Assembly: GCF_030405905.1 (NCBI RefSeq)
Contig: NZ_JASATW010000040.1
Coordinates: forward strand, 5,008 to 29,007
Length of the DNA stretch: 24,000 nt
Reading direction: 5' to 3'
From: Sphaerothrix gracilis Ecp01
Lineage (GTDB): Bacteria; Cyanobacteriota; Cyanobacteriia; Phormidesmidales; Phormidesmidaceae
Below the pieces are notes generated by a model. The model did not search any database, was not told the DNA's origin, and saw nothing but the letters and a program-made list of their open reading frames with translations. Of this stretch, positions 2,022 through 20,427 are shown in pieces. Positions within the stretch are counted from its first letter, which is position 1. Every line of letters starts with the position of its first letter. The position numbers and the translations under genes were made by a program.

Positions 2022-2399
2022 ATGTCCCAGCCAATCGGCCTCAGTGAACTGATTCAGCAAGTTAAAAAGGAACTGCTAGCTCCTGTACTGGATAGAAAAT
2101 CAGATCCCCCCATTCTGTTTGTCGAATCGGTCGAACTGGAGCTGCAGGTGACCGCACGACGCGAAGGCAATGCCGGTATCAAAATCGATGTTCTCTCAGT
2201 CGGTGGCGGTGAAGCCGGTGGCGGCGTCAGTCACGAGAAAGCCCATACGGTGAAAGTTCAGCTATCGCCTTTATTCGATAAGGCCCAATTGCTGGAGTGG
2301 TATAAAGATCTCTATGGAGATGAGATTATGCCAGCGGTTAAGCGGAGTATGGAGGCTTTACTCAAAGGGGATGAAAGCAACATAGCCGACCGCTACTAG
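2022..2399 (+). CDS. trypco2-family small protein (trypsin co-occurring domain 2), predicted partner or regulator of the adjacent CHAT peptidase.
   Basis: 125-aa ORF. The pattern LSELIQQVKKEL...ILFVESVELELQVTARREGNAGIKIDVLSVGGGEAGGGVSHEKAHTVKVQL matches the trypco2 family as I remember it (E-rich helix, then VELEL...V strands with a G-rich loop). Its stop at 2397-2399 lies 1 nt before the CHAT ATG at 2401. Confidence 0.7.
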   Translation: MSQPIGLSELIQQVKKELLAPVLDRKSDPPILFVESVELELQVTARREGNAGIKIDVLSVGGGEAGGGVSHEKAHTVKVQLSPLFDKAQLLEWYKDLYGDEIMPAVKRSMEALLKGDESNIADRY

Positions 2400-2400
2400 G

Positions 2401-4026
2401 ATGATGAAGCACCTAGAAATCTACTTGTTCCCAATTGATGCTCAGCGCTTTCAGGCAGTGGCAAGCCAGTCTCCCGCCGGAGACGGTTCTGCAGAATCAT
2501 CATTGCCTTTTTGGCAGGGAGCCCTCGACCGCCGCAAGACGCTGATTAAGCTCTTGGAGCTGTCTAGTGGGTTTCGGGCTGAGGCGTTTCCTGACGCTGA
2601 TGAACAAGATTGGATGATTCAAGAATCGCTTTTAGCGCCGGATCGGCAAAGTTTTCATCCTGCTTATTTGGAGACGGTGGGACAGCGCCTCTATCAGGCT
2701 CTATTTCCGGTTGGCAGTAGCTTACGCTCAACATTTGAAACGTCTTTACGCTTGGCTGAGCCTGAGCCAGCTAACGAGGATTTGCACCTGCGGCTGAAGT
2801 TTGCAGCTAACTCGGCTGAGCGATCGCGCTTGGCAGACTATCCCTGGGAACTGCTCCACGATGGTCAGCGTTTTTTATTGCACCATCGTGTTGTCCTTTC
2901 GCGCTACCTTGCCTATGAGGCTCTCCCGCCAGCGTTGCCATCGCAAGCGCAACTGCGAGTTTTATTAATATCCTCCACGGCTTCTGATCCAGCTCAAGGA
3001 CTAATCAAGCTACCCGAGACTGAGCAGCAGGCAATTCGTCAGGGATTGTCTAAGGCTGAGACTTCTGGAGTGATTGCATTAGAGTCGTTATCCCCGGTGA
3101 CTCGTCGAGGGTTGAGCATCTATCTAACTGACTGTGATCCGTCGTTACGCCCTCAGGTGATTCATTTTGATGGTCACGGGCTCTATGGCAAGCGGTGTAT
3201 CAATCCTGACTGTCGGCAGATGCACAATAGTACCAAGGTCGAGCGCTGCCGCCGGTGTCAGCACCTATTACCCGACTCAGAAGGCTTTCTGCTGTTTAAA
3301 GGGGAGTCAGGCGGATCAGACTATGTGAGTGCTCGGGAGTTTGCGGCTTTACTGCCGTCGGGAGTGGCTTTGGTGGTTCTCAGTGCCTGTCAATCGGGCA
3401 TGGCTGTGGCGGGAGAGTCGCTGTTTAACGGCACGGCTCAGCAGCTAATCGATGCCCGCATACCGGCTGTGGTGGCAATGCAGTACATGGTTAGGGTAGA
3501 TGCGGCCAGCCAGTTTTCCGAGCAGTTTTACCGGGTGCTGGGAAAGAAGGAACCGCTGGTGGTAGCACTGCGGGAGGGGCGGAAGTGGATGATGGAGTTG
3601 GTAAATCAGTGGTATCGACCGGTGCTTTATCTGCGCTGGCGGGATAATGGAGGGGGGCAGTTGTTTCAGGAAATGCTGGAACCCGAGCTATCAGATTCTT
3701 CTAAATTCTACGACTCGCAAATCGCACCACCGACACCTTTGCTGCCGCGCTCGGAGTGGCTTCGTCTCTATCAGGATTTGATGAATGCTTTTGAGGATAC
3801 AGATGATTTTCAAAAGATGTTGGAGCTGTATGTAGGAGAAAACTTTGAGGCACTATCCTCGCGGTACAAGCCTTATGACAACCGGGTGCTCGATACCGTA
3901 AAAAGGCTGAATGGAGAAGGGAAAAGCGTGGCGCTGGTGAGTGGAGCCGTGCAGGCTAAGCCACAGAGTCCACACTTGCAGTATTGGCGTGACTGGCTAA
4001 ACCGTTTAGAAGATGGCACAGCTTAA
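2401..4026 (+). CDS. CHAT-domain (caspase-like Cys/His) peptidase with an internal zinc ribbon and a C-terminal effector-associated (death-like helical) domain.
   Basis: Catalytic dyad motifs are VIHFDGHG (His codon 3175-3177) and VVLSACQSG (Cys codon 3388-3390). A CxxC...CxxC insert (CINPDC...CRRC, 3196-3257) sits between them. The C-terminal ~95 aa (about 3739-4026) is helical: EWLRLYQDLMNAFEDTDDFQKMLELYVGENFEAL...VLDTVKRLNGEGKSVALV. Confidence 0.85.
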   Translation: MMKHLEIYLFPIDAQRFQAVASQSPAGDGSAESSLPFWQGALDRRKTLIKLLELSSGFRAEAFPDADEQDWMIQESLLAPDRQSFHPAYLETVGQRLYQALFPVGSSLRSTFETSLRLAEPEPANEDLHLRLKFAANSAERSRLADYPWELLHDGQRFLLHHRVVLSRYLAYEALPPALPSQAQLRVLLISSTASDPAQGLIKLPETEQQAIRQGLSKAETSGVIALESLSPVTRRGLSIYLTDCDPSLRPQVIHFDGHGLYGKRCINPDCRQMHNSTKVERCRRCQHLLPDSEGFLLFKGESGGSDYVSAREFAALLPSGVALVVLSACQSGMAVAGESLFNGTAQQLIDARIPAVVAMQYMVRVDAASQFSEQFYRVLGKKEPLVVALREGRKWMMELVNQWYRPVLYLRWRDNGGGQLFQEMLEPELSDSSKFYDSQIAPPTPLLPRSEWLRLYQDLMNAFEDTDDFQKMLELYVGENFEALSSRYKPYDNRVLDTVKRLNGEGKSVALVSGAVQAKPQSPHLQYWRDWLNRLEDGTA

Positions 4027-4078
4027 GCTAGCAGTCGCTTAGGATAGAAGGCATGTTTGCGCCTGAGGATGACTGGGT

Positions 4079-4885
4079 ATGGCTGCTACTGAGAACCTGA
4101 CGCTACATCGCTACACGTGCAGCAATACAGGGTATGTCGAGAAACTGGGGGACGGGGTAACGCTGACTCTCATGCAGATACCTGCTGGGGAGTTTTTGAT
4201 GGGCAGTGCTTCAGATGACCGGAACGGTCAAGATAATGAGCGTCCACAGCATCGGGTGAAGGTGCCGCGATTTTTCATGGGGCGAACTTCGGTGACTCAG
4301 GCTCAGTGGCGGGTGGTAGCAGGCTATGAAAGGGTAGATATTGACCTCGACCTCGCCCCCTCAGGCTTCAAGGGAGATGACTTGCCGGTGGAGCGAGTTA
4401 GTTGGTATGAGGCAACGGAGTTTTGCAAGCGGCTATCGAAGGAATTGAGTCGGCGACACTCGCCTCAAAGCCAGCCACAGTATCGTTTACCCTCAGAAGC
4501 TGAGTGGGAATATGCTTGCCGGGCAGCAACAACGACGACTTATCATTTTGGCGATCAGATCGCAGAAAATTTAGCGAATTACGATGGAGGCCTAGAAAGT
4601 AAGGTTGCCAGCTATCCAGCCAATCTCTGGGGATTGTATGACATGCATGGCAATGTCTGGGAGTGGTGCGAAGACGACTATCACGGTAGCTATGACAAGG
4701 CTCCTACCGATGGCAGCGCCTGGATAGCCGATAAAAATACTGAGTATAAAATACGTCGTGGCGGCTCCTGGCGCTACGACCCGAGGAACTGTCGCTCCGC
4801 GTTCCGCAACGACGGTACCCCGGCCTACCGCAACTACGACATCGGTTTTCGGGTTTGTTGTTCGGCCCCCAGGATTCTTCAGTAG
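4079..4885 (+). CDS. FGE-sulfatase / SUMF1-like (C-type-lectin-fold) domain protein, DGR target 1.
   Basis: Hallmark motifs present: [72 protein letters not shown]. The C-terminal 125 bp is homologous to the TR. Confidence 0.9.
   Translation: MAATENLTLHRYTCSNTGYVEKLGDGVTLTLMQIPAGEFLMGSASDDRNGQDNERPQHRVKVPRFFMGRTSVTQAQWRVVAGYERVDIDLDLAPSGFKGDDLPVERVSWYEATEFCKRLSKELSRRHSPQSQPQYRLPSEAEWEYACRAATTTTYHFGDQIAENLANYDGGLESKVASYPANLWGLYDMHGNVWEWCEDDYHGSYDKAPTDGSAWIADKNTEYKIRRGGSWRYDPRNCRSAFRNDGTPAYRNYDIGFRVCCSAPRILQ
4757..4880 (+). repeat. DGR variable repeat VR1.
   Basis: Aligns codon-for-codon with the TR at 14878-15002. Most differences fall at TR adenines (AAC to CGC, TAC, GAC, ACC). It has about 4 non-adenine differences by hand count, more than the other VRs. 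Confidence 0.75.
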
Positions 4886-4924
4886 CTCTTTATACTCTTG
4901 CCCTTTTGCTCTCTGCAGAAAAAA
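4881..4924 (+). promoter_or_regulatory. Conserved post-VR element, copy 1 (candidate DGR target-recognition flank).
   Basis: AGTAGCTCTTTATACTCTTGCCCTTTTGCTCTCTGCAGAAAA. Near-identical copies follow all four VRs, but nothing similar follows the TR. Confidence 0.5.
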
Positions 4925-5104
4925 TTTGCGTTCTTTTTCATTCGCCGTTAGGCGATCGCACTTTGCTATCAAATTCGGTGCTAGTCGTCTTTAGTGCCAA
5001 AAACTTGGTTAAAGTAGGGCATAAAGCCGGAAACTAGGCTAAATAGCTTGAAGAGCATAGAAGCTGTAGAAGCTGGTAGAGTACAGACTGCCTAGGGTGA
5101 GGTA

Positions 5105-6592
5105 ATGGCAGGGTTGGAGAGGAAAGACATCAAAGCGTTAAGAGATGCAATCTATTCGGTTTATCCAAACCATGACCGTTTTGAGATGTTTATTGCACTC
5201 GACGTTGATTCTGAGCAGCTCTGTGCAAGCGATCGCTCCGAAATTAAGATAGCGATCTTTAGGCTGATTCAGCAGGCTGAAAGTATAGGGGAAACAGAAA
5301 AGCTTCTTATCGGACTGCGAGATGCTAGCGAGGTCGAAAAACGAGAGGATATTCAGCAGTTATGTGATGATCTTCTTTTCAAACTGCAACCCACGGTTGA
5401 TCAAGAGAAACTGTCTATTGCAAAACCAGATCTAAATAGCTTATTTCAGCAGTTTGACGCAGCAATAGATTTCCCCTATATTCAAATCGCCTTTTATAGT
5501 GCATTTCAGACAGTTTTTGCTCGCTCTTTCTTCGAAATGCGCCCCGATCGCCCCTCTACTAATTCGTTAGCAGCAATCAGGAGACTTCTGGAAATTTATT
5601 CGGCAGAACTGGCTATTCGATTTGCGGAATACGCTCTTGAAGAGCTATCTCGTTCTCCTCTAGGAATGGGGAGGCAAAACTCGCAGTCTTTCTTTCAAGC
5701 CATAGACGACTGGCGACAGCGTATGGCCAACGAATTTGGTATTACAAGCCCGCTACCTAAAAAGATTCCTCAAGATTCTCAGGGATATTTGCTTGTAGCA
5801 TTTGACGCGCCACGACCAGATCTGTCTGATATCAGCATGACTGCAGAGTTGTACAGGGGGGAAGAAGCTTACTTTGGTCAGCCTGATGCGCCTCAATATT
5901 GCTGCAAGATTGAGGAAGCGGCCAATCGTCTATCTCAATGGATACTATCCGCTACAGAAAAACTAGCAGCTCAGAACTGTAAGCTTGACTGTATAGAACT
6001 GTTCTTGCCTTGCCATCACATAGAAAGTCTTACTGATGTTGCTGATGACTGGGAGGTGCATAATCTTCAGGGGCGATCGCGGCCTTTTGGGTCTCGAAAC
6101 TACATTATTCGCTCTTTGGAGCGGGCTGCTCAGGAACCCACTCAGGTCTGCCTTGCTAAGAATTGGGTTCAGCTTGAGCAATGTAAAAACAAAGATGTCT
6201 GCGACCACTTTCATCTTCAAAGAGATTGCCCAAAAGTAGGCGATTTGGAAGGATTGGAAGCATCTGGATTAAACTTGGTTGCTGATCTCTCCTCTAACAA
6301 GGGTGAACGTCAAGAGATTCTCTTCGACATTATTAACTCTGGGGTGCCTATTACGTTTTGGTTTGGTCCAAATAATCAACAAACGTCAGAAAAACGACTA
6401 AAAAGCTTGAAAGATGCGTTGAAAGATGTCGATCTGACGAACTTTGTGGGGCTAGCACAAGCTTGGAGAACAATTCGTGCTCGGGCTAATGTAAGACTGC
6501 TAGTGGATTGCCCGCACCGCCGTCCGAGCCTACCCGATCCTGAAAATCGGGAAGATGATGATTCTCTAGTGTCTGAGACGCTTAGCCCCTAG
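5105..6592 (+). CDS. VMAP-like adaptor (vWA-MoxR associated protein) with an N-terminal effector-associated domain.
   Basis: 495-aa ORF immediately upstream of the MoxR and vWA genes. Its N-terminal ~75 aa (KDIKALRDAIYSVYPNHDRFEMFIALDVDSEQL...IFRLIQQAESIGETEKLLIGL) has the same helical pattern as the CHAT C-terminus. The call rests mainly on gene context; I recognise no catalytic motif. Confidence 0.55.
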   Translation: MAGLERKDIKALRDAIYSVYPNHDRFEMFIALDVDSEQLCASDRSEIKIAIFRLIQQAESIGETEKLLIGLRDASEVEKREDIQQLCDDLLFKLQPTVDQEKLSIAKPDLNSLFQQFDAAIDFPYIQIAFYSAFQTVFARSFFEMRPDRPSTNSLAAIRRLLEIYSAELAIRFAEYALEELSRSPLGMGRQNSQSFFQAIDDWRQRMANEFGITSPLPKKIPQDSQGYLLVAFDAPRPDLSDISMTAELYRGEEAYFGQPDAPQYCCKIEEAANRLSQWILSATEKLAAQNCKLDCIELFLPCHHIESLTDVADDWEVHNLQGRSRPFGSRNYIIRSLERAAQEPTQVCLAKNWVQLEQCKNKDVCDHFHLQRDCPKVGDLEGLEASGLNLVADLSSNKGERQEILFDIINSGVPITFWFGPNNQQTSEKRLKSLKDALKDVDLTNFVGLAQAWRTIRARANVRLLVDCPHRRPSLPDPENREDDDSLVSETLSP

Positions 6593-6606
6593 TCCCTTGC
6601 TCGCCC

Positions 6607-7812
6607 ATGACCTGGAAATACAAGTACTTTCAAGGAAACTGCCATAGTGCTCAGCCTTCTGGCATGAAGCAGCCCCCTGAAGCTCCCCCCTGGCGGCGAT
6701 TTTTGCCGCGAGAAGAATTTCTTACGCAGCAACAGGCCCAGAAGCAGGCTGACGAGCAGGAACAGACCAAAGATGAAATCTACTGGACAAAGCTTCAGAA
6801 TCTCGCCGACGAAGATACACGGGCTATTCAACGGGGCAAGAGCTTTCGCATTTCTACTGGTAAAGAAGGAATGGCGGTGATTGATGCAGTCAATGCTGCG
6901 ATTCATCTACGGCGACCGCTGTTAGTAACGGGTGCCCCCGGCTCTGGTAAAACCTCACTGGCCTACGCGATCGCCTATGAGCTTCAACTGGGTCCCGTCC
7001 TCACTTGGCCCATTACTGCTCGCTCTAATTTGGTCGATGCTGAATATCGCTATGACGCTATTGCCCGTCTGCAGGACGCTCAGCTCGACAAAACCCGTAA
7101 TTTGATTGACTTAGCTGTTTTACTAGGTGTCGATGTTTCCCGTTTGCAAGAGGCCCAACTTGACAAAACTCGTCAAGGGGCAGCAACTCCGGAGGAAGGC
7201 GACTTGGGCGACTATATTCAGCTTGGCCCAGTGGGGACGGCCTTTTTGCCCTCCCTGCGGCCTCGGGTGTTGCTGATTGACGAAATTGATAAAAGTGACC
7301 TGAACCTACCCAATGACTTGCTCAACCTGTTTGAAGAAGGAGAATTTGAAATTCCAGAGCTGGTGCGTCGTAAGCGGCGTGGGCAAGATACCGACGATCC
7401 CAACGCCACCGTCACGGTACGCACTGCCGATAAAGAGATGGAGGCTCCCGTTACGAATGGTCGGGTGAAGTGCTGCGAATTTCCCATTGTGATCATGACC
7501 AGCAACGGTGAGCGCGACTTTCCCCCTGCTTTCTATCGTCGCTGTTTGCGGGTGCAGATGCCCAGCCCCGACGAAGACTCACTGAAACCGATTGTGCAGT
7601 CTCACTTTGAAGAGAGCGATCGCTGGGATGAGGTAGAGTCGCTTATCCGCAAATTCGTGAGTAAGGATAAGGGCAAAACCTCAGATCGGGCGACCGACCA
7701 GTTGCTCAATGCCGTTTATCTGATGGGGCGTCACCCAGACAGCCTGAGCGCGGATGAAAAAACTCGGCTCCGGGAGTTGTTGTTTCAGTCGTTGGGTGGC
7801 ACCGACGCATGA
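6607..7812 (+). CDS. MoxR-like AAA+ ATPase.
   Basis: Walker A is LLVTGAPGSGKTSLAYA and Walker B is RVLLIDEIDKSD. MTSNGERDFPPAFYRRC looks like the sensor/arginine-finger region. Its stop overlaps the next gene's start in an ATGA at 7809-7812. An internal Met start is possible. Confidence 0.85.
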   Translation: MTWKYKYFQGNCHSAQPSGMKQPPEAPPWRRFLPREEFLTQQQAQKQADEQEQTKDEIYWTKLQNLADEDTRAIQRGKSFRISTGKEGMAVIDAVNAAIHLRRPLLVTGAPGSGKTSLAYAIAYELQLGPVLTWPITARSNLVDAEYRYDAIARLQDAQLDKTRNLIDLAVLLGVDVSRLQEAQLDKTRQGAATPEEGDLGDYIQLGPVGTAFLPSLRPRVLLIDEIDKSDLNLPNDLLNLFEEGEFEIPELVRRKRRGQDTDDPNATVTVRTADKEMEAPVTNGRVKCCEFPIVIMTSNGERDFPPAFYRRCLRVQMPSPDEDSLKPIVQSHFEESDRWDEVESLIRKFVSKDKGKTSDRATDQLLNAVYLMGRHPDSLSADEKTRLRELLFQSLGGTDA

Positions 7813-10592
7813 CACAGTCTGGGGCCACGGGAGCATCGCCAGATCTGGTGAATGCGTTTCTCCAGCGGCTGGCTAAGGCGCAGGAACTTACGGGTATTGA
7901 AACCACGACCCAAATGGCGGAGCTGCTGTGGTTGGCGACTCATCTGGAATCAGATTTCCCATCACCCGAGTCTCCGGGTGATCAATCGGAGGATATAGAT
8001 GTCTCGCAAGACGATGAGGGCAGTCGCAGACTGACGCCCTCTACGGGGCGATCGCCATCTACTTCCTCTCCAGAGCACCCTTCTTCTAAACGAATAGACA
8101 TCGTAGCACCTACGCCACAGAAGGCATTGCCTCCCGAAGTGCTACCGGTGCAGATTGTTGACCCCGCAATGCTCTCTGACCCTCTAGCCATCATTAGGGC
8201 TCTCAAACCGCTCCTGCAGAAAATCGACGCCGGTACTGGCAGCCGTCTCGACGAATCTGCCACAGTTGATTTCATTGCTCGCACCCAGCTCTGTGTGCCA
8301 AAGCTGCAGCCTGATCAAGAGACGTGGTTTGACATCATTTTGGTGGTCGATCGCAGTAGCGCGTCGATGGTGATTTGGCAGCGCTTGGTACAAGATATTG
8401 TGCGCGCGCTCCGTCGGTACGGAGCCTTCCGCGATGTCCGGGTGTTTGATTTGGTGATCTATCCCGAAGCGCAACCAGCAGATCAGGTCATGCTGCGGTC
8501 TCATCCTCAGCGCCCAGATCACCATCCCAAAGAACTTATTGACCAGACAGGCCGTCGTCTTGCCATTGTCCTCAGCGACAGCACGGGTGCTCACTGGTGG
8601 CAGGGCATCCTAACGCCTACGCTAGAAACCTGGGGCCACCACATGCCTGTAGTTCTGTGGCAGATGCTGCCTCCTTGGATGTGGCAGCGCACTGCCCTAG
8701 GGCGAGGTATTCCTGTTTCCCTCAGAAATGATCTACCAGGAGGCACTAACCAGCGGTTAAAAAAAAGAGCCCCTGCGCAAAATACTCCGGCTAGTCTTCA
8801 GCAACGCATAGCCCTTCCGGTGGTGACTGGTGAAGAGCGTGACCTCAGCCGCTGGAGTCAGTTAGTAGCAGGCAAGCCGGGAGTGACTCCCGGCTTTTTG
8901 CTGCCGCCACCAGGGGGCACCGTGCCCCGCTCATCATCAGTGGAAACGCTCGCAGATGTTGAACTGGCTGAACGTCGAGTCGAGCGCTTTTTGCGGCTTT
9001 CTTCTCCCGATGCTCAGTGGCTGCTGATGCTGCTAGCGGCTGCCCCAGTGATTACCCTGCCCATCGTCCGGCTGATTCGAGAGGAGAAGCTTCCAGATGT
9101 GCGATCGCCCCTACCCATTGCCGAGGTCTTCACCGGTGGTTTATTGCAGCGTCTTCCTGGTCAAGAAGAGCGGGCACTGGAATCTACTTCGACTAAACCA
9201 GAGCAGTCGGATGAGCTGATAGAACCGCAAGACTTGGTGCAGTATGACTTTGCTGGCCGGGTGCGGGGGGTTTTGCTGAGTGGCAAGTGGCTACCGCCAG
9301 TAGACGCTGTCGATGTCATCAATAGTGTGTCTCGGGCGATCACCCGACGATTTAACCGCCTCTATCCTTATACCTTCCAGGCTTATCTTAAAGACCCTAA
9401 TATAGAACTACCGGAAGGTTTGGAGGGCGCGAAAACTTTCGCCACCATCACGGCTGATATTTTGGCTTCACTAGGACGACCCTATGAAGACCTAGTTCAA
9501 CAACTCAGAAGGGGAGCAGCGAAAGTTCCTGTCCCGGTTACAGAGCTCGATCCCTATGGTCGCCGTCTCCAAACCTTTGAATATGAAGTCGCTGAATACC
9601 TGAATCTTCCACCCCTTGAATCATTCGAGTTTGTTGATGCGCAACTTATAGATGACGACTTTCCACCATCTCTTGATACTGAAGACTTCACCATCATTAC
9701 CTTAGAACCGCAAACATCATCGAGGCCGGTACTGCAACCCTTTGAATTTGTGCTTGCCAAGCTCATACCTAGTCAGGATACGAATGAGTGGGTGATTGAG
9801 CGTCAGCAACGGCAAGCCAATCGCTTTACTGAACCCCTAGCAAATGACATTTACTTAAAGATGGTGGCAATTCCTGGTGGTACCTTCCTGATGGGTTCCC
9901 CAGAGAGTGAACCTGGACATTACGATCGCGAATCTCCTCAGCATGAAGTCGCTGTCCAGCCTTTCTTTATGAGCCGTTACCCAGTGACTCAGGTCCAATG
10001 GCGAGCTGTGGCAGCGCTACCCCAGGTAGAACGAGAGCTAAACTTAAACCCTTCAGGATTCAACGGCGAAAACCGCCCCGTAGAGCAAGTCTCTTGGGAT
10101 GACGCGGTTGAGTTCTGCGATCGCCTCTCAGCTCACACTGGACGTCAATACCGCCTGCCGACTGAAGCGGAATGGGAATACGCCTGTCGGGCTGGCACAA
10201 CGACACCATTCCATTTTAGCGACATGATTACCACGGAAGTAGCTAATTACAATGGCAGCGCTTATGCAGACGGGCCGAAAGGTGAGAGCCGAGGCGAAAC
10301 CACGCCGGTAGATCACTTCGAAATCGCTAACGCTTTTGGCCTAAGCGACATGCACGGTAACGTTTGGGAGTGGTGTCAGGATGACTGGCACAACACCTAT
10401 GAGGGAGCTCCCATAGATGGCAGCGCCTGGGTAACTGGCGGAAATACTGAGTATAAAATCAGACGTGGCGGTTCCTGGTTCGACAACCCGAGGCACTGCC
10501 GCTCCGCGTACCGCATCAGGCTCAACCCGGACAACCGCGACGTCAACGTCGGTTTTCGGGTCTGTTGTTCGGCCCCCAGGTCTCTTCAGTAG
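7809..10592 (+). CDS. vWA component of the vWA-MoxR system (SAV_2336 N-terminal-domain family) fused to a C-terminal FGE-sulfatase domain, DGR target 2.
   Basis: The N-terminus (LVNAFLQRLAKAQELT...MAELLWLATHL), a low-complexity S/P linker, then WFDIILVVDRSSASMVIWQRLVQDIVRALRRYGAFRDVRVFDL match the SAV_2336-type vWA proteins as I remember them. The C-terminal ~250 aa (from about 9840) carries IPGGTFLMGSP, PQHEVAVQPFFMSRYPVTQVQW, LPTEAEWEYACRAG, MHGNVWEWCQD, RGGSW and [10 protein letters not shown]. Confidence 0.85.
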   Translation: MTQSGATGASPDLVNAFLQRLAKAQELTGIETTTQMAELLWLATHLESDFPSPESPGDQSEDIDVSQDDEGSRRLTPSTGRSPSTSSPEHPSSKRIDIVAPTPQKALPPEVLPVQIVDPAMLSDPLAIIRALKPLLQKIDAGTGSRLDESATVDFIARTQLCVPKLQPDQETWFDIILVVDRSSASMVIWQRLVQDIVRALRRYGAFRDVRVFDLVIYPEAQPADQVMLRSHPQRPDHHPKELIDQTGRRLAIVLSDSTGAHWWQGILTPTLETWGHHMPVVLWQMLPPWMWQRTALGRGIPVSLRNDLPGGTNQRLKKRAPAQNTPASLQQRIALPVVTGEERDLSRWSQLVAGKPGVTPGFLLPPPGGTVPRSSSVETLADVELAERRVERFLRLSSPDAQWLLMLLAAAPVITLPIVRLIREEKLPDVRSPLPIAEVFTGGLLQRLPGQEERALESTSTKPEQSDELIEPQDLVQYDFAGRVRGVLLSGKWLPPVDAVDVINSVSRAITRRFNRLYPYTFQAYLKDPNIELPEGLEGAKTFATITADILASLGRPYEDLVQQLRRGAAKVPVPVTELDPYGRRLQTFEYEVAEYLNLPPLESFEFVDAQLIDDDFPPSLDTEDFTIITLEPQTSSRPVLQPFEFVLAKLIPSQDTNEWVIERQQRQANRFTEPLANDIYLKMVAIPGGTFLMGSPESEPGHYDRESPQHEVAVQPFFMSRYPVTQVQWRAVAALPQVERELNLNPSGFNGENRPVEQVSWDDAVEFCDRLSAHTGRQYRLPTEAEWEYACRAGTTTPFHFSDMITTEVANYNGSAYADGPKGESRGETTPVDHFEIANAFGLSDMHGNVWEWCQDDWHNTYEGAPIDGSAWVTGGNTEYKIRRGGSWFDNPRHCRSAYRIRLNPDNRDVNVGFRVCCSAPRSLQ
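10463..10587 (+). repeat. DGR variable repeat VR2.
   Basis: By hand alignment to the TR, 11 substitutions fall at TR adenines (AAC to TTC, GAC, CAC, ATC, CTC, GTC; ATC to GTC). Only 1 substitution falls elsewhere in the mutable core (TGT to TGC). Confidence 0.9.
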
Positions 10593-10631
10593 CCCTTTAT
10601 ACTCTTGCCCTTTTGCTCTCTGCGTAGAAAA
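10588..10631 (+). promoter_or_regulatory. Conserved post-VR element, copy 2.
   Basis: AGTAGCCCTTTATACTCTTGCCCTTTTGCTCTCTGCGTAGAAAA, ending directly at the likely ATG (10632) of the next FGS gene. Confidence 0.5.
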
Positions 10632-11477
10632 ATGCCAGCCCAACCCTCTCAGCTTATCGTCAACAAACGTCGGGGACAGAACCAATACTACGAGGAGTTT
10701 CTAGCCGAAGGCGTTCTGCCGTTGCGCATGATGCTGATTCCTGCCGGTCGCTTTCTCATGGGTTCGCCTGAGAGTGAACTAGAGCGAACTGAGGCTGAAG
10801 GCCCGCAGCATGAAGTCGCCGTGCCGCAGTTTTTCATGGCTAAGTATCCTGTGACCCAGGCCCAGTGGCGGGTTGTGGCAGCGCTGCCGGAGGTAAATCA
10901 AGGACTAAACTCCGATCCCTCTAAGTTTAAGGGAAATGACCGCCGTCCCGCCGAGCAGGTGTCTTGGCAGGATGCGGTCGAGTTTTGCGACAGGCTCACT
11001 ATTCACACCAACCGCCAATACCGCCTGCCGACCGAAGCTGAGTGGGAATACGCCTGCCGTGCTGGAACGACAACCCCCTTTCACTTCGGTGAGACGCTTT
11101 CTACTGACTACGCCAACTATCGAGGAAATGATGAGAAATACGGAGCTTATGGCCCAGGGAGCCGAGGCGAGTATCGCAAACAAACCACTCCAGTAGATCA
11201 TTTTGAAGGGGCGAATGCCTACGGCCTCTGCGATATGCACGGCAATGTTTGGGAATGGTGTCAAGATGACTGGCACGAAAACTATGAGCAGGCTCCTACG
11301 GATGGCAGTGCCTGGGTAACCGGCGGAAATGCTGAGTATAAAATTATACGTGGCGGTTCCTGGAGCGATGTCCCGAGGTACTGCCGCTCCGCGTTCCGCT
11401 TCAGGGACTTCCCGGACTTCCGCGACTCCGACATCGGTTTTCGGGTTTGTTGTTCGGCCCCCAGGATTCTTCAGTAG
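10632..11477 (+). CDS. FGE-sulfatase domain protein, DGR target 3.
   Basis: The track ORF starts at 10605. I prefer the ATG at 10632 (MPAQPSQLIV...) because 10605-10631 lies inside the conserved post-VR element. Motifs present: [73 protein letters not shown]. Confidence 0.88.
   Translation: MPAQPSQLIVNKRRGQNQYYEEFLAEGVLPLRMMLIPAGRFLMGSPESELERTEAEGPQHEVAVPQFFMAKYPVTQAQWRVVAALPEVNQGLNSDPSKFKGNDRRPAEQVSWQDAVEFCDRLTIHTNRQYRLPTEAEWEYACRAGTTTPFHFGETLSTDYANYRGNDEKYGAYGPGSRGEYRKQTTPVDHFEGANAYGLCDMHGNVWEWCQDDWHENYEQAPTDGSAWVTGGNAEYKIIRGGSWSDVPRYCRSAFRFRDFPDFRDSDIGFRVCCSAPRILQ
11348..11472 (+). repeat. DGR variable repeat VR3.
   Basis: By hand alignment to the TR, about 18 substitutions fall at TR adenines and 2 fall elsewhere. 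Confidence 0.9.
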
Positions 11478-11520
11478 CCCTTTATACTCTTGCCCTTTTA
11501 CGCTCTGCAGAGAAATAAGC
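11473..11520 (+). promoter_or_regulatory. Conserved post-VR element, copy 3.
   Basis: AGTAGCCCTTTATACTCTTGCCCTTTTACGCTCTGCAGAGAAATAAGC. It contains the 10-bp palindrome CTCTGCAGAG. Confidence 0.5.
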
Positions 11521-11548
11521 TGTTAAGAAATAAATCAACTTCTTGCGA

Positions 11549-11737
11549 TTAGTCGTCTGATGTGGGTGTTCCGTGGCGGCTGCTATCGGATTCTGAGTTG
11601 CTGACGCCTAAGTCCGTTGTCTCATCTGCGGCTGATTCCAGATGGTTTTCTTTTCGCGTAAACACATAGTGCTCAAAGATTTTGCGCCTCAGCCGATGGG
11701 TGTCGCCGTGCATCAGGTGGGCTTCCCAGCTCTGTAA
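11549..11737 (-). pseudogene. Displaced 3' fragment of the DGR reverse transcriptase gene: the authentic C-terminal 60 codons plus stop, cut off by the IS insertion.
   Basis: The minus strand from 11731 down to 11549 reads SWEAHLMHGDTHRLRRKIFEHYVFTRKENHLESAADETTDLGVSNSESDSSRHGTPTSDD*. If the IS and one CTGTAA copy are removed, this is in frame with ...LQPLVQRLQ of the RT. SW.(A/G)H..HGDT..LR is the usual DGR RT C-terminal motif. Confidence 0.8.
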
Positions 11738-13454
11738 CCAACATTCCGCAGGTTGCCAAAAGATTAGGTAGGTGCATAGTAGGGCTCAACATGAGCCCCC
11801 AAGAATCGGATGATTGTGCGCCGCTCATCAGTCAGGTTACTAATCTGCTTGAGGTGTCCGAACTGCACAAAATGAATGCCCTGAAACTTCTGAATGACCC
11901 ACCGAAAGGTAGGGTTGACAGTAGGCTGTTTTTTCTGGTCGAGGATTGTTTGCTGTTGTGCCGCCAGGGTTTGTCTAAGCTTACGTTCAGCTAAGGTGTA
12001 GACCATCAAAGTCAGGGCCATGACCAGGGCTAGAGCCTCGACTCTTTGGGCTTTTTTGACAAACAGGCTGCTGGCGAAGAACAACGGGTCTTTGAGAAAG
12101 CGAAACCCGCGCTCAGTCTTCTGTTGGCCCTTGTACTCTTGCAATAGCTTGTCAGCAGGCCACTGCTGGGTATCGAGGTGATTGGTGGCCAGGATAAACC
12201 GACTGCGCTGGTTCTGGTAGGCAGTGCTCCGGCGCTCAAGCTTGGCTTTGAGGCGGTAGCCGGTGGCAGGTGGTGTGTCTTTAGCTTTTGCTTTAGTTCG
12301 CTGACCCGGTGCCCGTTTCGGTCGAAGCGTCTCAACGCTGACCTCAGTGAGGTGATGGACCGCCAAGGTGTCTTGGAAGCGCATCAGGGCTTCGAGGGCA
12401 TCGGGCTTACAGGCAAAGACCTGTTGCTGCAGCTGCTTGAGGTTGCGGTGCAATCGTTTCTCTAGCTGCTTGAGTTCGGGCTCCCACAGCGACTGGTCAG
12501 CCTTGCGCGTCAGACTCTCAATCAGAATCCAGCGCTGCTGAACTCCACCATACTCAGCGGTTGTCTCCCACATCCGGTAGTCCTTGAGGGTGCAAGCAAC
12601 TGGCGTCAGTTCGCTGGTATCACTTTGCACGAGCGCTTGGGCATCGCTCAAGGTTTGGGGTACCCGTGAGACCCATTTGAGTGAGCCGACCTGCTGTAAG
12701 TTCGGCTCGCTGTAAAAGGCTGCGTCGATAACGAACACACTGTCCATCTGCCAACTGTTGGCAAACTGGCGCATCAACCCGGCAAACTGCTGCGCGTCAC
12801 TCTGGTTGCCATCTGCAACCTTCAGCCACAGCGGCACGCCCCCATCCGCGCTACACATTAGATTCACCACAAACTGCTTCAGGTCGGGTCGTTGGTCTCT
12901 TGAATAGCCTCGACAGATCTCGATAGGCACCTGATCTAAGTCTCCCGACTCAACCCTCTCCCGCCCATACTCGCCTTGCAACGAAAACGAACTCGAGTCT
13001 AGATGAACCTGGCCAACATCGACGCCAAATCGCTCCACCGCCTGCATCGCCACACGCAAAAAGAAACTGCTGGTGCCCTCTTCATATAACTCGTCGAGCA
13101 CACGTCCGAGACGGTCATCGTTCAGGTAACTCGCTTGTATGCCTTCGCCGAGCAAATGCTCAACCGGCTTACTCTCAAAGAACTCGCTGAACAGGTACAG
13201 AGGCGCGCTCACAAAACCCAAGCCGTTCAGTATCAGTGCTTTGACCACTTGCCCCGCGCTGATGTGCTCCAGCTGATGCTGGCCTAATTGTGCGTTGGTC
13301 AGTTCCACCAGTCCTACCTCGTCAACCATCCCGGCAACCAAGCCTAGGTGATCCAGATTCTCTATCTTCAATCGATGCATCCATTCTCTTGAGGGCTGCT
13401 TCTACTCTACGGCACACCACCTTTCTTATTCATTGTCAACCTGCGGAATGTAGG
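11738..13454 (-). mobile_element. IS1634-family (IS4 superfamily) insertion sequence, apparently complete at 1717 bp.
   Basis: The terminal inverted repeats are CCAACATTCCGCAGGTTG (11738-11755) and the reverse complement of CAACCTGCGGAATGTAGG (13437-13454), matching at 17 of 18 positions. They are flanked by the direct repeat CTGTAA at 11732-11737 and 13455-13460. One long transposase ORF lies inside. Confidence 0.85.
11764..13380 (-). CDS. IS1634-family DDE transposase.
   Basis: 538-aa ORF. The N-terminus IENLDHLGLVAGMVDEVGLVE...ISAGQVVKALILNGLGF is the DUF4277-type start typical of IS1634/IS4 transposases. A DDE-type core follows (VFVIDAAFYS...). Confidence 0.85.
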   Translation of the reverse strand: MHRLKIENLDHLGLVAGMVDEVGLVELTNAQLGQHQLEHISAGQVVKALILNGLGFVSAPLYLFSEFFESKPVEHLLGEGIQASYLNDDRLGRVLDELYEEGTSSFFLRVAMQAVERFGVDVGQVHLDSSSFSLQGEYGRERVESGDLDQVPIEICRGYSRDQRPDLKQFVVNLMCSADGGVPLWLKVADGNQSDAQQFAGLMRQFANSWQMDSVFVIDAAFYSEPNLQQVGSLKWVSRVPQTLSDAQALVQSDTSELTPVACTLKDYRMWETTAEYGGVQQRWILIESLTRKADQSLWEPELKQLEKRLHRNLKQLQQQVFACKPDALEALMRFQDTLAVHHLTEVSVETLRPKRAPGQRTKAKAKDTPPATGYRLKAKLERRSTAYQNQRSRFILATNHLDTQQWPADKLLQEYKGQQKTERGFRFLKDPLFFASSLFVKKAQRVEALALVMALTLMVYTLAERKLRQTLAAQQQTILDQKKQPTVNPTFRWVIQKFQGIHFVQFGHLKQISNLTDERRTIIRFLGAHVEPYYAPT

Positions 13455-14483
13455 CTGTAACCGCTGCACCAGGGGCTGAAGAGTGATTTTGCCGGTTTCG
13501 TAGTCTTGCTGGAGCTGCTTCATCCGTCGCCGTGCCCGTCTGAGATTGTCATTGCGCACCCGAATCCGATCCGGTAAGACACGGAAGCCGACAAAGCTAG
13601 CCCCATGATGGGTTTCAAAGAGCTGACTCTTAATCGGATGCATTTTCAGCCGTAACGTGACCAGGAAATCTTCCATTGCCCGTTTGGCCGCTGCCAACTC
13701 CTGCCAGTCATTTGAAAAGGCGGCATAGTCATCGACGTACCTGAGATAGTAGCGCAGCTTAAGCTGTCGCTTCACAAAGTGATCAAAGGGGCTGAGATAG
13801 AGATTGGCGAAAAACTGGCTGGTCAAATTTCCGATAGGCAAGCCCTTGCGGCGTTGAACTGGCGTCAGTAAGTCATCTCCCGGAAAGTATTCAATCACCG
13901 GCTCCTGCTCATTGCTGGCGTCGATAATCGTATCAATCAGCCATAGCGTATTGGGACACCTAATTTTCTCTCGGATCAAGGTCTTGAGGATTTTGTGATC
14001 GATTGAGGGAAAATACTTCTGGATGTCCCCCTGCAGGCAGTAGCGCTGACTGCGAGCAAATTGGGTGAATCGTTTCAGAGCCCGATGTGTGCCGTAGCCG
14101 CTGCGGTTGGCATAGGTATCGACAATCAGCGTCTGCTCCAGCAGCGGCGTGATCACATTACACAACGCATGATGCACCACCCGGTCCCGATAAGGCGCTG
14201 CTGAAATCAAACGCGGCTTGGGATCTCGAATCTTGAACGTGCGGTATGCCCCAGGGCGATAGGTGTGGTCTTCCAGCTCCTGCTGCAGGGCCGGAAGTTC
14301 CCGTTCCAGAGCATAGTTAAACGCCAGAACATTGTCCCGAAAGCGTTTTCCCTTTTGTGCCTGCCGTGAGGCCAGCAGCAGATTTTCAAAGTCAAGGATG
14401 TCTGGCCAGAGATTACCGTGACGTTTCATGGGACTTCTGACTCTGCTATTTGATCCAGCCGCCGAGATCGGTACCGATAGCAT
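13407..14483 (-). CDS. DGR reverse transcriptase, 3' end interrupted by the IS. The last 15 codons plus stop (13407-13454) are IS-derived, and the likely true start is the ATG at 14429.
   Basis: RT motifs present: [51 protein letters not shown] (the DGR-type I/LGxxxSQ motif) and [11 protein letters not shown] (YxDD). It lies downstream of an Avd gene and close to the TR. The start [20 protein letters not shown] at 14429 avoids overlap with avd. Confidence 0.9.
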
Positions 14484-14772
14484 TGATGAGCTGCCCTACA
14501 TACTGGTATCGCTTATGAGATAACAAATCAAAATCCAGCAGCAGCCGGGTTTGATAGCGCAGGACATCTAATTTGCTGTTGATGACCTGGAGCTGAGGCA
14601 GTTTATCGCGCTGATAGCGAGCCATAATCAAGCTTTCCAACAATCCATAAAGGCCCATCACCATGCGATCGCCTAGCTGGAATCTATGGTCTCGGGGCAA
14701 TCGATTGAGAATCGGCACGTACCATTTAATCAAGTCGTAGGTTTTCTGAATAATCGGTAGCTCAGTTGCCAT
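14446..14772 (-). CDS. avd: DGR accessory variability determinant (Avd; four-helix-bundle, 23S rRNA intervening-sequence-protein-like).
   Basis: The track ORF is 183 aa (14446-14997), but its first 75 codons run antisense through the TR. Starting at Met76 (ATG at 14772-14770) gives 108 aa: [53 protein letters not shown]... This is the usual Avd size and pattern, directly upstream of the RT. Confidence 0.8.
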
Positions 14773-14877
14773 CGGTTCTCTGTATGTGGATAGGACAGAG
14801 GCCAGGATACAGTATGCAACATCGGCTTCATTTTTACCGTCAGGCTGCTGTATGCTGCTGACGGGGTAGGCCGCTAA

Positions 14878-15002
14878 ACGTGGCGGTTCCTGGAACAACA
14901 ACCCGAGGAACTGTCGCTCCGCGTACCGCAACAGGAACAACCCGGACAACCGCAACAACAACATCGGTTTTCGGGTCTGTTGCTCGGCCCCCAGCACTCT
15001 TC
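14878..15002 (+). repeat. DGR template repeat (TR).
   Basis: This 125-bp intergenic copy of the VR sequence has 11 AAC codons where the VRs carry mixed codons: ...TGG AAC AAC AAC CCG AGG AAC TGT CGC TCC GCG TAC CGC AAC AGG AAC AAC CCG GAC AAC CGC AAC AAC AAC ATC GGT... Its 3' end (TGC TCG GCC CCC AGC ACT CTT C) differs from the VR 3' ends (TGT TCG GCC CCC AGG ...), as expected for IMH* versus IMH (IMH = initiation of mutagenic homing site). Confidence 0.9.
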
Positions 15003-15172
15003 TATCGCCAGCAATGGCCGGTCAGAACTGGCAGGTGGGAATCTGTCGGGCGTACCCCAGAAGAGTCCAGACCTACTCCGGCGATATCCATCGAGGTATC
15101 CAAAAATCAAACCGGGCCAGCTATTTTGGTAGGGCAACCGAAGACCTAGCTGGCCCTCTCACCTTACCGCCA

Positions 15173-15985
15173 ATGTCTCTCACCATCCGCCGCACCCCCC
15201 GCCAATGCCGAGGCTACCCGGAACCCCTTTTAGAGATTACCGATGCCCTACCCCTGCACATGGTGCTCATCCCTAGCGGCACCTTCACGATGGGCTCCCC
15301 CGACGATGAACCCGATCGCAAAGATAATGAAGGGCCGCAACGAGAGGTCACCGTGCCGACGTTCTTTCTAGGCCGCTACCCGGTCACCCAAGCTCAATAC
15401 GAAAAGGTTATGGAGACGAATCCAGCCACTCGGTACGAGGCAGACCGACTTGTTGCCCCTAACAAGCCTATTGTCGGTGTGAGCTGGCAGGATGCGGTCG
15501 AGTTTTGCGATCGCCTGGCTCAGCTCACGAGCCGTCCCTACCGCCTGCCCTCAGAAGCGGAATGGGAGTACGCTTGCAGAGCGGGCACAACCACCCCCTT
15601 CTACTTCGGCAGAACCCTGACCGACGAACTCGCCAATTACCGAGCCTCGGCAACCTATGCAGAGGGTCCAGCGGGGCAATTTCGTAACGAAACGACGCCA
15701 GTAGACCATTTCGATGTCGCCAATGCCTTTGGTCTGTCTGATATGCACGGCAATGTCTATGAGTGGTGTCAGGACAACTGGCACGCCACCTATGAGGGGG
15801 CTCCTACTGATGGCAATGCTTGGTTAATCGGTGGAGATAAAAGGTATAAAATTATACGTGGCGGTTCCTGGGACGACAGCCCGGGGTACTGCCGCTCCGC
15901 GTTCCGCAACGTGGGCAACCCGGTCAACCGCTACATCAGCATCGGTTTTCGGGTTTGTTGTTCGGCCCCCAGGACTCTTCAGTAG
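15173..15985 (+). CDS. FGE-sulfatase domain protein, DGR target 4.
   Basis: The track ORF starts at 15014. I prefer the in-frame ATG at 15173 (MSLTIRRTPRQ...), which gives 270 aa like its paralogs. Motifs present: [73 protein letters not shown]. Confidence 0.88.
   Translation: MSLTIRRTPRQCRGYPEPLLEITDALPLHMVLIPSGTFTMGSPDDEPDRKDNEGPQREVTVPTFFLGRYPVTQAQYEKVMETNPATRYEADRLVAPNKPIVGVSWQDAVEFCDRLAQLTSRPYRLPSEAEWEYACRAGTTTPFYFGRTLTDELANYRASATYAEGPAGQFRNETTPVDHFDVANAFGLSDMHGNVYEWCQDNWHATYEGAPTDGNAWLIGGDKRYKIIRGGSWDDSPGYCRSAFRNVGNPVNRYISIGFRVCCSAPRTLQ
15856..15980 (+). repeat. DGR variable repeat VR4.
   Basis: By hand alignment to the TR, about 14 substitutions fall at TR adenines and 2 fall elsewhere. 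Confidence 0.9.
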
Positions 15986-16030
15986 CCCTTTATACTCTTG
16001 CCCTTTTGCTCTTTACAGAGAAAAATAAGC
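15981..16030 (+). promoter_or_regulatory. Conserved post-VR element, copy 4.
   Basis: AGTAGCCCTTTATACTCTTGCCCTTTTGCTCTTTACAGAGAAAAATAAGC. CTCT-TTAC-AGAG can form a short stem-loop where copy 3 has CTCT-GC-AGAG. Confidence 0.5.
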
Positions 16031-16403: not shown

Positions 16404-17207
16404 TCAAGCTCGGGCTGAAGGATTGGCTTCAGTTGAGCGAGTGGCTGCGGCGCGTTTGCGATAGCTATCGGTATGGATTTCGACAATCAAGGCATGATGC
16501 ACGAGACGATCTACCGCCGCGACCGTCATCATGTCGTCGGCAAAAATGGTGTCCCATTGACTGAAAGGCTGATTGGCCGTGATTAAAAGACTGCGCCGTT
16601 CATAGCGATGGGCAATGAGCTCAAAGAGGACCAAGGTTTCGGCTTCTGACTTTTTGACGTAGCCAAGGTCATCAATGACTAGCAGATCAAAACGGTCCAG
16701 CTTGTGGAGCAAAGCGGGCAATTGCAACTGCAACTGCAACTTAGCCTGCTGCAATTGCTGTACCAATGCCGTCGCAGTGAAGAATTTAGCCCGTTTGCCG
16801 AGTTCGACAATAGAGCGCGCCAAGGCTGCCGCCAAATGAGTTTTGCCGACACCGGAAGGCCCGAAGATTAAACAGTTTTCGGCGCGCTCTAGCCAGCCGG
16901 TATCCGTGGCCAGTTGCATCAGCGGCAGCGGATTGAGCTTTGGGACATGGTTCTAGTCAAAGTTGGAAACCGTTTTGGCGGCGGGGAGTTGGGCCTCTTG
17001 CAGGGCGCGTTTGAGGCGCACACTCCAGCGTCGGTCCACCTCCAATTCGCAGAGTGCCAGTCAGAATTGAGCGTAAGACCACTGTTCTTGCATGGCCTGG
17101 TGTTCGAGGGTTTCCCAGTGCTGGAGCATGTGAGAGAGGCGGGCAGGCCAGTAGGTTGCTTGAAAATAAACTCGTCCCGGACTTTGAGGTGTAATCGTGC
17201 GTTTCAC
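16404..17207 (-). pseudogene. istB: IS21-family istB (AAA+ helper ATPase) pseudogene with two in-frame stop codons.
   Basis: The intact 171-aa ORF (16404-16919) contains WLERAENCLIFGPSGVGKTHLA (Walker A) and FDLLVIDDLGY (Walker B). Reading the same frame upstream gives VKRTITPQSPGRVYFQATYWPARLSHMLQHWETLEHQAMQEQWSYAQF*LALCELEVDRRWSVRLKRALQEAQLPAAKTVSNFD*NHVPKLNPLPLMQLATDTGW. The stops are a TGA at 17063-17061 and a TAG at 16955-16953. A GTG start at 17207 would give a normal ~267-aa IstB. Confidence 0.8.
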
Positions 17208-20360: not shown

Positions 20361-20427
20361 TTGCTATTGAGTGAGTCTAATTCTATTTGAATCGAATTAC
20401 TCATTATTATTAATTTTGTTTGAAGCT

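Follow-up and report, generated by a model that had tools for sequence, protein, structure and literature searches.

The closest described relatives of the locus reported here are the VMAP-type vWA-MoxR ternary conflict systems surveyed by Kaur et al. 2020 (PMC7159879), who found that roughly 80% of those in cyanobacteria and gammaproteobacteria are linked to a diversity-generating retroelement (DGR). According to the same study, FGE-sulfatase (FGS) domains, which have a C-type-lectin fold, are almost exclusive to the cyanobacterial VMAP systems; the vWA protein is usually fused directly to FGS, and caspase-superfamily effectors are always accompanied by an alpha/beta-hydrolase neighbour. Doré et al. 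2024 (PMC10907252) reported that most DGRs in multicellular cyanobacteria diversify putative sensors of VMAP systems. Here we describe a block of this kind in a 24,000-nucleotide (nt) stretch of DNA (the window) from Sphaerothrix gracilis (Nodosilineales), a thin filamentous cyanobacterium. With moderate confidence, we read the block as a VMAP-type vWA-MoxR ternary conflict system coupled to a DGR, in which hypervariable FGS sensors would signal to a caspase-like protease.

The architecture is the typical cyanobacterial one, already described in both studies. With the systems of Kaur et al. (PMC7159879) it shares a MoxR-like ATPase, a fusion of vWA to FGS, an EAD-VMAP-C adaptor, an EAD-tethered peptidase, a linked DGR whose template repeat (TR) lies nearby, and a host of multicellular habit; an earlier sequence-only reading of the window had summarised that paper accurately. 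Those systems combine a trypsin with Trypco or a caspase with an alpha/beta-hydrolase, whereas the window combines CHAT with Trypco2, has four variable repeat (VR) targets and carries a reverse transcriptase (RT) gene disrupted by an insertion sequence (IS). Like DGRs 4, 5 and 7 of Thiohalocapsa PB-PSB1 and the cyanobacterial RT clade 5E of Doré et al. (PMC10907252), it joins a vWA protein to a variable C-type-lectin target, with MoxR, VMAP, adaptors (Trypco1/2) and peptidase effectors adjoining and several targets per TR, and the model of a sensor acting through MoxR on a VMAP effector is common to that study and to our proposal. PB-PSB1, however, belongs to another lineage with another effector set, and its diversification was shown by metagenomics, whereas the window has a truncated RT. 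What is distinctive here is the CHAT-Trypco2 arm without an alpha/beta-hydrolase, the presence of four targets within the locus itself, an avd-RT cassette that is inverted, and an RT interrupted by an IS.

Three successive genes on the forward strand encode the ternary core. The first (5105..6592) specifies a VMAP adaptor with an N-terminal EAD1 domain (Pfam, 29.3 bits against a cut-off of 24.2), a variable middle region and a C-terminal VMAP-C domain (PF20028, residues 247-462, 36.4 bits against a cut-off of 27). It belongs to a small family that evolves fast, of which six proteins were found, the homologues being 32-46% identical; in the homologues (P0002-P0006) VMAP-C is present and the neighbours are the same. 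The second gene (6607..7812) encodes a MoxR-like AAA+ ATPase that matches Pfam AAA_5 (32.6 bits, cut-off 22) and AAA (30.7 bits), with Walker A (GAPGSGKT) and Walker B (LLIDEID) motifs that are invariant in the family alignment. No AAA_3 match was obtained for it in profile searches, and sequence-level searches of the PDB with the single sequence and with a profile returned no relative. In a Foldseek search, its structural model, with a pLDDT of only 69, matched NorQ best (E-value 4e-7, TM-score 0.60 on the target) and also CbbQ2, annotated as 'MoxR AAA+', and many homologues carry the source name MoxR-like. A look-up of the exact ATPase sequence gave no record, but the identical sequence is among the collected homologues as P0007. 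On these model-based matches the ATPase is assigned to the MoxR clade. As in the NorQ-NorD and CbbQ-CbbO pairs, which supply its best structural matches, the AAA+ gene adjoins the gene of a vWA partner; those pairs, by contrast, mature metallo-enzymes and come without VMAP, adaptor, protease or hypervariable domain. The first 32 residues of the ATPase (6607-6700), which precede the AAA+ core and are modelled with a pLDDT below 50, contain the family-invariant positions W3, P24, PPWR at 27-30 and F32.

The third gene (7809..10592) lies directly downstream of the ATPase gene, overlaps it by 4 nt and encodes a vWA-type protein fused to FGS. Membership of the SAV_2336 N-terminal family is unambiguous (NF041121, SAV_2336_NTERM, residues 33-516, 337.8 bits against a cut-off of 200, E-value 1e-100), the FGS part matches FGE-sulfatase with an E-value of 1.5e-56, and most of the more than 150 homologues have a C-terminal FGS. 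Two invariant aspartates, D181 after the predicted strand 175-180 (VVDRSSASM) and D257 after the predicted strand 250-256 (IVLSD), mark the ends of predicted beta-1 and beta-4 in a series of alternating beta/alpha elements, which is the criterion for vWA given by Kaur et al. The gene list of the sequence-only reading is reproduced in full by the open reading frame (ORF) map, with every gene at its coordinates, including the ATGA overlap of the ATPase and vWA genes and the 1-nt spacing of the Trypco2 and CHAT genes, and its assignment of the three core genes to the VMAP, MoxR and vWA families agrees with profiles for VMAP-C, AAA+ ATPase and SAV_2336 N-terminal and with the MoxR-family structural matches of the ATPase.

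The block recurs well beyond Sphaerothrix. A scan with the restored RT (restoration described below) across one genome per species gave 73 loci, to which the window proteins were then mapped and in which adenine-biased repeats were searched. The MoxR and/or vWA family is present in at least 20 of these 73 RT-anchored loci. Five related loci (L001, L002, L003, L007 and L056) have the same block in synteny and around 15 more have part of it; because the gene order recurs in other cyanobacteria, chance adjacency is ruled out, and the neighbourhood seen in the sequence-only reading is not accidental. Around three of the VMAP homologues, the order is EAD1-trypsin, EAD1-VMAP, AAA+, vWA-FGS, FGS, FGS in L001; Trypco2, CHAT-EAD9, EAD9-VMAP, AAA+, vWA-FGS, FGS in L002; and VMAP, AAA+, vWA-FGS, FGS in L003. 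L056 is nearly a gene-for-gene copy, with Trypco2 (78% identity) and CHAT (65%) followed by VMAP, AAA+, vWA-FGS, FGS and a convergent RT. In L007, the vWA protein has WD40 repeats between vWA and FGS.

The effector arm lies upstream of the core. It begins with a 125-residue Trypco2-domain protein (2022..2399, forward strand; Pfam PF19631, E-value 2.2e-18), encoded 1 nt before the gene of a CHAT (caspase-like) protease (2401..4026, forward strand; Pfam CHAT, E-value 2.7e-24) in which the catalytic His (HFDGHG) and Cys (LSACQSG) motifs are kept. The Trypco2-CHAT pairing is also present in L002 and L056. Between the catalytic His and Cys, residues 264-287 (around 3190-3260) form a CxxC...CxxC insert, KRCINPDCRQMHNSTKVERCRRCQ, that is shared with L056 and is presumably a zinc ribbon. 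The C-terminus of CHAT carries an EAD1-like adaptor (residues ~448-528; Pfam E-value 3e-3), to which a profile of VMAP-type EAD1 aligns in hhalign over 80 columns with an E-value of 1.6e-5 and a Prob of 79%, shuffled controls giving E-values of at least 0.23. The VMAP protein and the neighbouring effector form the homotypic EAD1 adaptor pair of VMAP systems. Comparison with L056 is informative in this respect: as far as residue 436 the two CHAT proteins share 65% identity, and beyond that point they are unrelated (window 3709-4026 versus L056 17449-17650, minus strand); CHAT and VMAP both carry EAD1 in the window and both carry EAD9 in L056. Partners likewise match within other loci, with EAD1/EAD1 in L001 and L007 and EAD9/EAD9 in L002 as well as L056, and the two EAD9 copies of L002 are 82% identical at the nucleotide level. 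To judge from these alignments, the adaptor pair has been swapped in concert between the window and L056, which is the outcome predicted by homotypic adaptor pairing.

All four FGS domains of the block end in a copy of a single 132-nt repeat, which occurs in five copies, one TR (14878..15009) and four VRs. The A-rich TR lies outside the FGS domains, on the forward strand, which is that of the targets and opposite to avd and RT. VR1 (4756-4887), placed by TR/VR alignment, belongs to a stand-alone FGS protein, FGS1 (4079..4885; Pfam FGE-sulfatase, E-value 3e-54); VR2 (10463-10594) to the vWA-FGS fusion gene; and VR3 (11348-11479) and VR4 (15856-15987) to the stand-alone proteins FGS3 (10632..11477, E-value 4e-57) and FGS4 (15173..15985, E-value 4e-56), all on the forward strand. 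Each VR consists of the last 130 nt of the FGS frame and ends 2 nt past the stop codon, so that it spans the stop. Between 13 and 18 of the 31 TR adenines are changed in each VR, and adenines account for 15/26, 13/18, 18/26 and 14/21 of the mismatches over the full 132 nt of the four VRs (58-72%). Differences at other template bases fall mostly in the 3' terminal 35 nt (the initiation of mutagenic homing, or IMH, region), with only 1-4 per VR in the core at 14894-14963, where the TR has 27 adenines in 16 codons, 11 of them AAC. As many as 29 of the 31 TR adenines are at codon position 1 or 2, and the design permits about 5e15 protein variants while making a stop codon impossible. This pattern is the standard DGR signature and lies far beyond chance, and its concentration of TR/VR differences at template adenines shows, as judged from the alignments, that all four FGS domains were rewritten from one template in the past. 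Position 14914 is T in the TR and VR1 and C in VR2, VR3 and VR4. The T may be a template mutation later than the last rewriting of VR2-4; against this, VR1 has the most non-adenine differences (11 across the 132-nt repeat), which leaves the order of events unsettled.

Several features are shared with the DGRs of Bordetella phage BPP-1 (Mtd) and Treponema denticola (TvpA). Mutagenic retrohoming is adenine-specific and leads from TR to VR, the VR forms the C-terminal end of a target with a C-type-lectin/FGE fold, both Avd and RT are present, and VR and TR show the IMH/IMH* type of difference at their 3' ends; the FGS family profile matches TvpA (2y3c) with an E-value of 1e-24. There, however, the targets are a tail fibre and a surface lipoprotein, and in the window they are signalling proteins of the cytoplasm. 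For FGS3 the probable start is ATG 10632, the longest ORF beginning at TTG 10605. For FGS4 the start is most likely ATG 15173 and not 15014, as previously given, because a conserved non-coding RNA covers 14990-15156; ATG 15173 aligns with the starts in L006, L008 and L056 and gives an N-terminus like those of FGS1 and FGS3, and 15014-15172 is most likely non-coding.

The diversifying enzyme itself is broken. The first 343 codons of a DGR RT (Pfam RVT_1, E-value 2e-18) occupy 13455..14483 on the minus strand, and the last ~60 codons are found, severed, at 11549..11737 on the same strand. Between them, inside the RT frame at codon 343 and between VR3 and RT, sits a 1717-bp IS1634-family element (11738..13454, minus strand), which the sequence-only reading did not contain. 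Its transposase (11764-13380, 538 residues) scores 355 bits with NF033559 (transpos_IS1634; cut-off 100) and matches Pfam DUF4277 and DDE_Tnp_1; the element is bounded by imperfect 37-nt terminal inverted repeats (78% complementary) and by a perfect 6-bp target duplication, CTGTAA, at 11732-11737 and 13455-13460. As it stands, the RT ORF (358 residues) extends to 13407, its last 15 codons being IS-derived. Removing the IS and one CTGTAA copy in silico gives a 403-residue RT ORF ending at 11549, whose tail holds QSWEAHLMHGDTHRLRRKIFEHY. The motif SWxxH..T..LR..F in this severed segment is present in all homologues that are readable in the C-terminal alignment, which reaches from close cyanobacterial relatives as far as Planctomycetota and Pseudomonadota. 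The RT likely starts at Met19 (14429) and has 60-81% identity to its counterparts in the nearest cyanobacterial DGR loci. Next to it, avd is probably 14446..14772 (minus strand, 108 residues), starting at an internal Met at residue 76 of a longer ORF (14446-14997) in which bAvd matches residues 82-183 (72.5 bits, cut-off 40, E-value 5e-20); Avd identity is 57-89% beside homologous cyanobacterial and Acidobacteriota RTs and ~35-47% in loci of Planctomycetota and Pseudomonadota, which are more distant.

The locus has no intact DGR-clade RT. Since the RT has lost a conserved C-terminal segment, we infer that the DGR is inactive now; the four sensors have probably stopped diversifying and become frozen, unless a second RT elsewhere in the genome stands in. 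With its transposase intact and its target duplication perfect, the insertion is judged to be recent, and the nine remaining reading frames of the block are undamaged and as long as their homologues. The claim that four FGS domains are tied to one DGR stands as far as the one TR and four VRs are concerned; the DGR itself is not intact. Likewise, the description of the locus as a 'programmable' receptor is probably true of its past and not of its present, the insertion having cut off the conserved RT C-terminus, and because the RT is truncated the Sphaerothrix locus makes a poorer test case than the 'attractive experimental candidate' it was taken for. A better one is, for example, Leptolyngbya sp. 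PCC 7375 (L007), where a Mutator-family transposase (11385-12494) sits at the same RT-FGS junction and the RT (377 residues) is intact.

On the 3' side of the TR, about 165 nt are strongly conserved in both cassette layouts found among the related loci. This segment (14990..15156, forward strand) is a conserved structured RNA that overlaps the TR 3' end and resembles in position the DGR RNA spacer, of which we consider it an analogue. In an alignment of 16 loci (window, L004, L006-L008, L010, L011, L014, L016, L019, L021, L022, L024, L025, L031 and L056), RNAalifold predicts 36 pairs, 21 of them with compensatory changes, and one predicted helix joins the TR 3' end to a segment 60 nt downstream; the RNA matches no Rfam family at gathering thresholds. 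The same 16-locus alignment reveals a candidate promoter and 5' end of the TR-RNA at 14851..14871 (forward strand), with a -10-like TATGCT and a conserved GGGGTAGGC motif just 5' of the TR. A scan for promoter and terminator consensus sequences was uninformative, with fewer sites than in shuffles. The homologous region of Trichodesmium yields an abundant RNA of 265 nt, whose own transcription start has been mapped ~26 nt upstream of the TR (PMC4143802), and the structured RNA of the window corresponds to the 3' part of this TR-RNA.

The DGR of Trichodesmium erythraeum IMS101 (L031; Pfreundt et al. 2014, PMC4143802) also shares with the window the RT (63% identity), Avd, TR, the structured RNA that follows the TR on its 3' side, a CT-rich element behind every VR, and upstream genes for MoxR and vWA-FGS; its TR-RNA has its own promoter, and its RT is damaged too, by a stop codon. 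Its genes, however, are colinear, with the TR downstream of RT and twelve dispersed targets (PMC4143802), whereas the window has an inverted avd-RT cassette and four targets that are all local. Among the other loci, L004, L010 and L024 have three targets per TR each. The colinear layout, with the TR just downstream of RT, is found in Trichodesmium, Scytonema and others, and the window layout, with the TR upstream of avd in opposite orientation, was called in L004, L006, L007, L008 and L056; L005, L017, L054, L070 and L074 have the convergent gene arrangement without a template call. From these gene orders, the two layouts would be explained by inversion of the avd-RT cassette alone. Independent transcription of the TR-RNA, as in Trichodesmium, makes such an inverted cassette workable: in our proposal the TR-RNA would be made from its own promoter on the target strand, which is why the cassette could sit inverted.

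A second conserved element begins at the stop codon after each VR. On the forward strand, it covers 4883..4918 (VR1), 10590..10625 (VR2), 11475..11510 (VR3) and 15983..16018 (VR4), and its CT-rich consensus, TAGCCCTTTAyMCTCTTGCCCTTTTGCTCT, contains repeated GCCCTTT units; the element is missing after the TR. At VR1 it is written as TAGCyCTTTATACTCTTGCCCTTTTGCTCT. It also follows the VRs of L004, L008, L010, L017, L031 (Trichodesmium), L070 and L074. In contrast to BPP-1 and TvpA, the window has this element in place of a stable post-VR hairpin: a BPP-1-like hairpin was rejected, the VR flanks folding no better than shuffled sequence. Pairing of the element with the TR-RNA was likewise rejected, with duplex energies equal to those of shuffles and sites that are not conserved. 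As a hypothesis, the element may have a role in target recognition.

Loss of the diversifier is recurrent among relatives. Of ~20 related VMAP-FGS loci, 7 keep their FGS, vWA and ATPase genes but have an RT/avd/TR cassette that is damaged or gone: the window has its IS insertion, L054 an internal deletion, and L001, L017, L070, L074 and L075 only remnants. These avd/RT remnants or frame-broken copies lie at 16781-16843 (L001), 1730-2732 (L017), 10001-10811 (L054), 10001-10189 (L070), 5526-5618 (L074) and 10001-10150 (L075), and the CT-rich element persists with the sensor genes in DGR-decayed loci. It is conceivable, though we would not bet on it, that the cassette is disposable, with sensors that 'diversify, then lock', and that the structured RNA and the CT-rich element together form a cyanobacterial DGR targeting code so far undescribed and unlike the BPP-1 hairpin. 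If so, DGR loss after diversification would be the life cycle of a prokaryotic receptor repertoire.

How might these parts work together? In the mechanism we propose, the cytoplasmic FGS domains would be hypervariable ligand sensors, one fused to vWA and three present as free paralogues. Ligand binding on vWA-FGS would be coupled to a MoxR-like AAA+ hexamer that remodels the vWA subunit, as in NorQ/NorD and CbbQ/CbbO. VMAP would bind the ATPase/vWA pair through VMAP-C, and its EAD1 would recruit CHAT through the EAD1 at the CHAT C-terminus. Clustered CHAT may then cleave cellular or invader targets, its obligate neighbour Trypco2 serving as a cofactor, a regulator or a substrate, and the affected cell of the filament could stop growing or die. 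In placing the sensor first we follow Doré et al. 2024 (PMC10907252).

Several observations weigh against this reading. The predicted vWA fold is the weakest link of the ternary assignment. Pfam VWA models match none of 43 family members, even at an E-value of 1; PDB searches of the vWA region, with the single sequence and with a profile, returned nothing, only the FGS part being matched; and a 560-residue model of the region has no Foldseek match in the PDB below an E-value of 0.01, the vWA matches at 0.04-0.3 ranking below phosphoribosyltransferases. An hhalign comparison of the vWA-region profile with the integrin alpha-M I-domain and CMG2 vWA sequences recovers the beta-1 motif only, at low probability. 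On the effector side, the EAD1 of CHAT scores 18.3 bits, under the Pfam cut-off of 24.2, and BLASTP of CHAT EAD1 against VMAP EAD1 gave nothing significant, a gap filled by the profile comparison above. Profile searches found no alpha/beta-hydrolase family in any ORF of the block, contrary to the rule of Kaur et al. for caspase-superfamily effectors, and PADLOC defence models match neither the vWA nor the VMAP protein. Our literature search turned up no experimental study of this system class, in agreement with the remark in the sequence-only reading that no VMAP system had been tested, and every step downstream of DNA diversification is a deduction. Finally, the direction of signalling is disputed between Kaur et al. 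and Doré et al., that is, whether FGS is sensor or effector.

This dispute gives the most serious alternative, which we rate as unlikely but well worth keeping in view. In the wiring published by Kaur et al. 2020 (PMC7159879), who class FGS as 'primary effectors' of cyanobacterial VMAP systems, VMAP senses invasion, MoxR activates the VMAP-recruited peptidase, and vWA is cleaved to release the FGS domains, which bind or neutralise invader molecules directly. The variable middle region of VMAP, with its few homologues at 32-46% identity, fits a fast-evolving sensor, and the three free FGS paralogues require no covalent tie to the signalling core. However, to our knowledge hypervariable lectin-fold domains serve ligand recognition in every studied DGR (Mtd, TvpA), and a non-catalytic binder is a weak terminal effector when the same operon encodes a caspase-like protease. 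Doré et al. 2024 (PMC10907252), moreover, argue for a sensor role of FGS.

Somewhat less probable still is that the system is not directed at invaders, and serves tunable signalling or self/kin recognition in the filament (cell death, differentiation or homeostasis), with the DGR tuning a sensor that is afterwards fixed; a non-immune signalling or kin-recognition role has been put forward by Vallota-Eastman et al. 2020. The decay described above, with the DGR damaged or lost and the sensors intact in the window and in L001, L017, L054, L070, L074 and L075, fits such tuning and fixing. CHAT proteases such as HetF function in cyanobacterial development, and this kinship speaks for the same reading, the NCBIfam match here being weak. 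Against it stand the surroundings, made up of mobile-element remnants and STAND/NACHT-WD40 conflict-type genes, the swapping of effector and adaptor modules among close relatives that is typical of conflict systems, and the ~5e15 variants per sensor, which are hard to square with one endogenous ligand. That the module is a decaying relic, headed for loss and with no present function, would fit the IS in RT, the possible IS remnants on either side (an IstB fragment at 16404-16919 and an ORF at 1611-1793 whose IS origin is a guess) and the DGR decay in related loci, but is very improbable given nine other intact frames with catalytic and nucleotide-binding motifs kept, the recency of the insertion (intact transposase, perfect target duplication), and sensors that are not disabled by loss of their diversifier.

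Of the bacterial analogues proposed so far, DGR-coupled VMAP systems come nearest to a receptor repertoire that feeds into a response of caspase type. A well-annotated locus helps in choosing what to test, and the Sphaerothrix copy could serve as a natural 'frozen repertoire' control. The adaptors exchanged in concert between protease and VMAP partners, a structured template RNA with transcription of its own, and the post-VR element could all serve as handles for reconstitution.

The block is flanked by an IstB fragment and by two further genes, one of NACHT and one of NB-ARC/NACHT-WD40 type, which place it in a region rich in mobile and conflict-type genes. The IstB-like ORF (IS21 helper ATPase; 16404-16919, minus strand) is truncated, covering profile positions 86-234 only, and has no adjoining IstA. 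It is followed by two STAND NTPase genes, one (17976-20360) with NACHT, an NCH2 domain and a body of low GC content (36%), the other (20371-24000, running off the window) with NB-ARC/NACHT and then at least 14 WD40 repeats, an array built of 126-nt tandem units with a mutual identity of 61-83%. At the opposite end, the first 1000 nt of the window have 33.5% GC and contain no ORF longer than 30 residues. A 60-residue ORF at 1611-1793 encodes a CxxC...CxxC zinc ribbon and may be the start of a degraded transposase.

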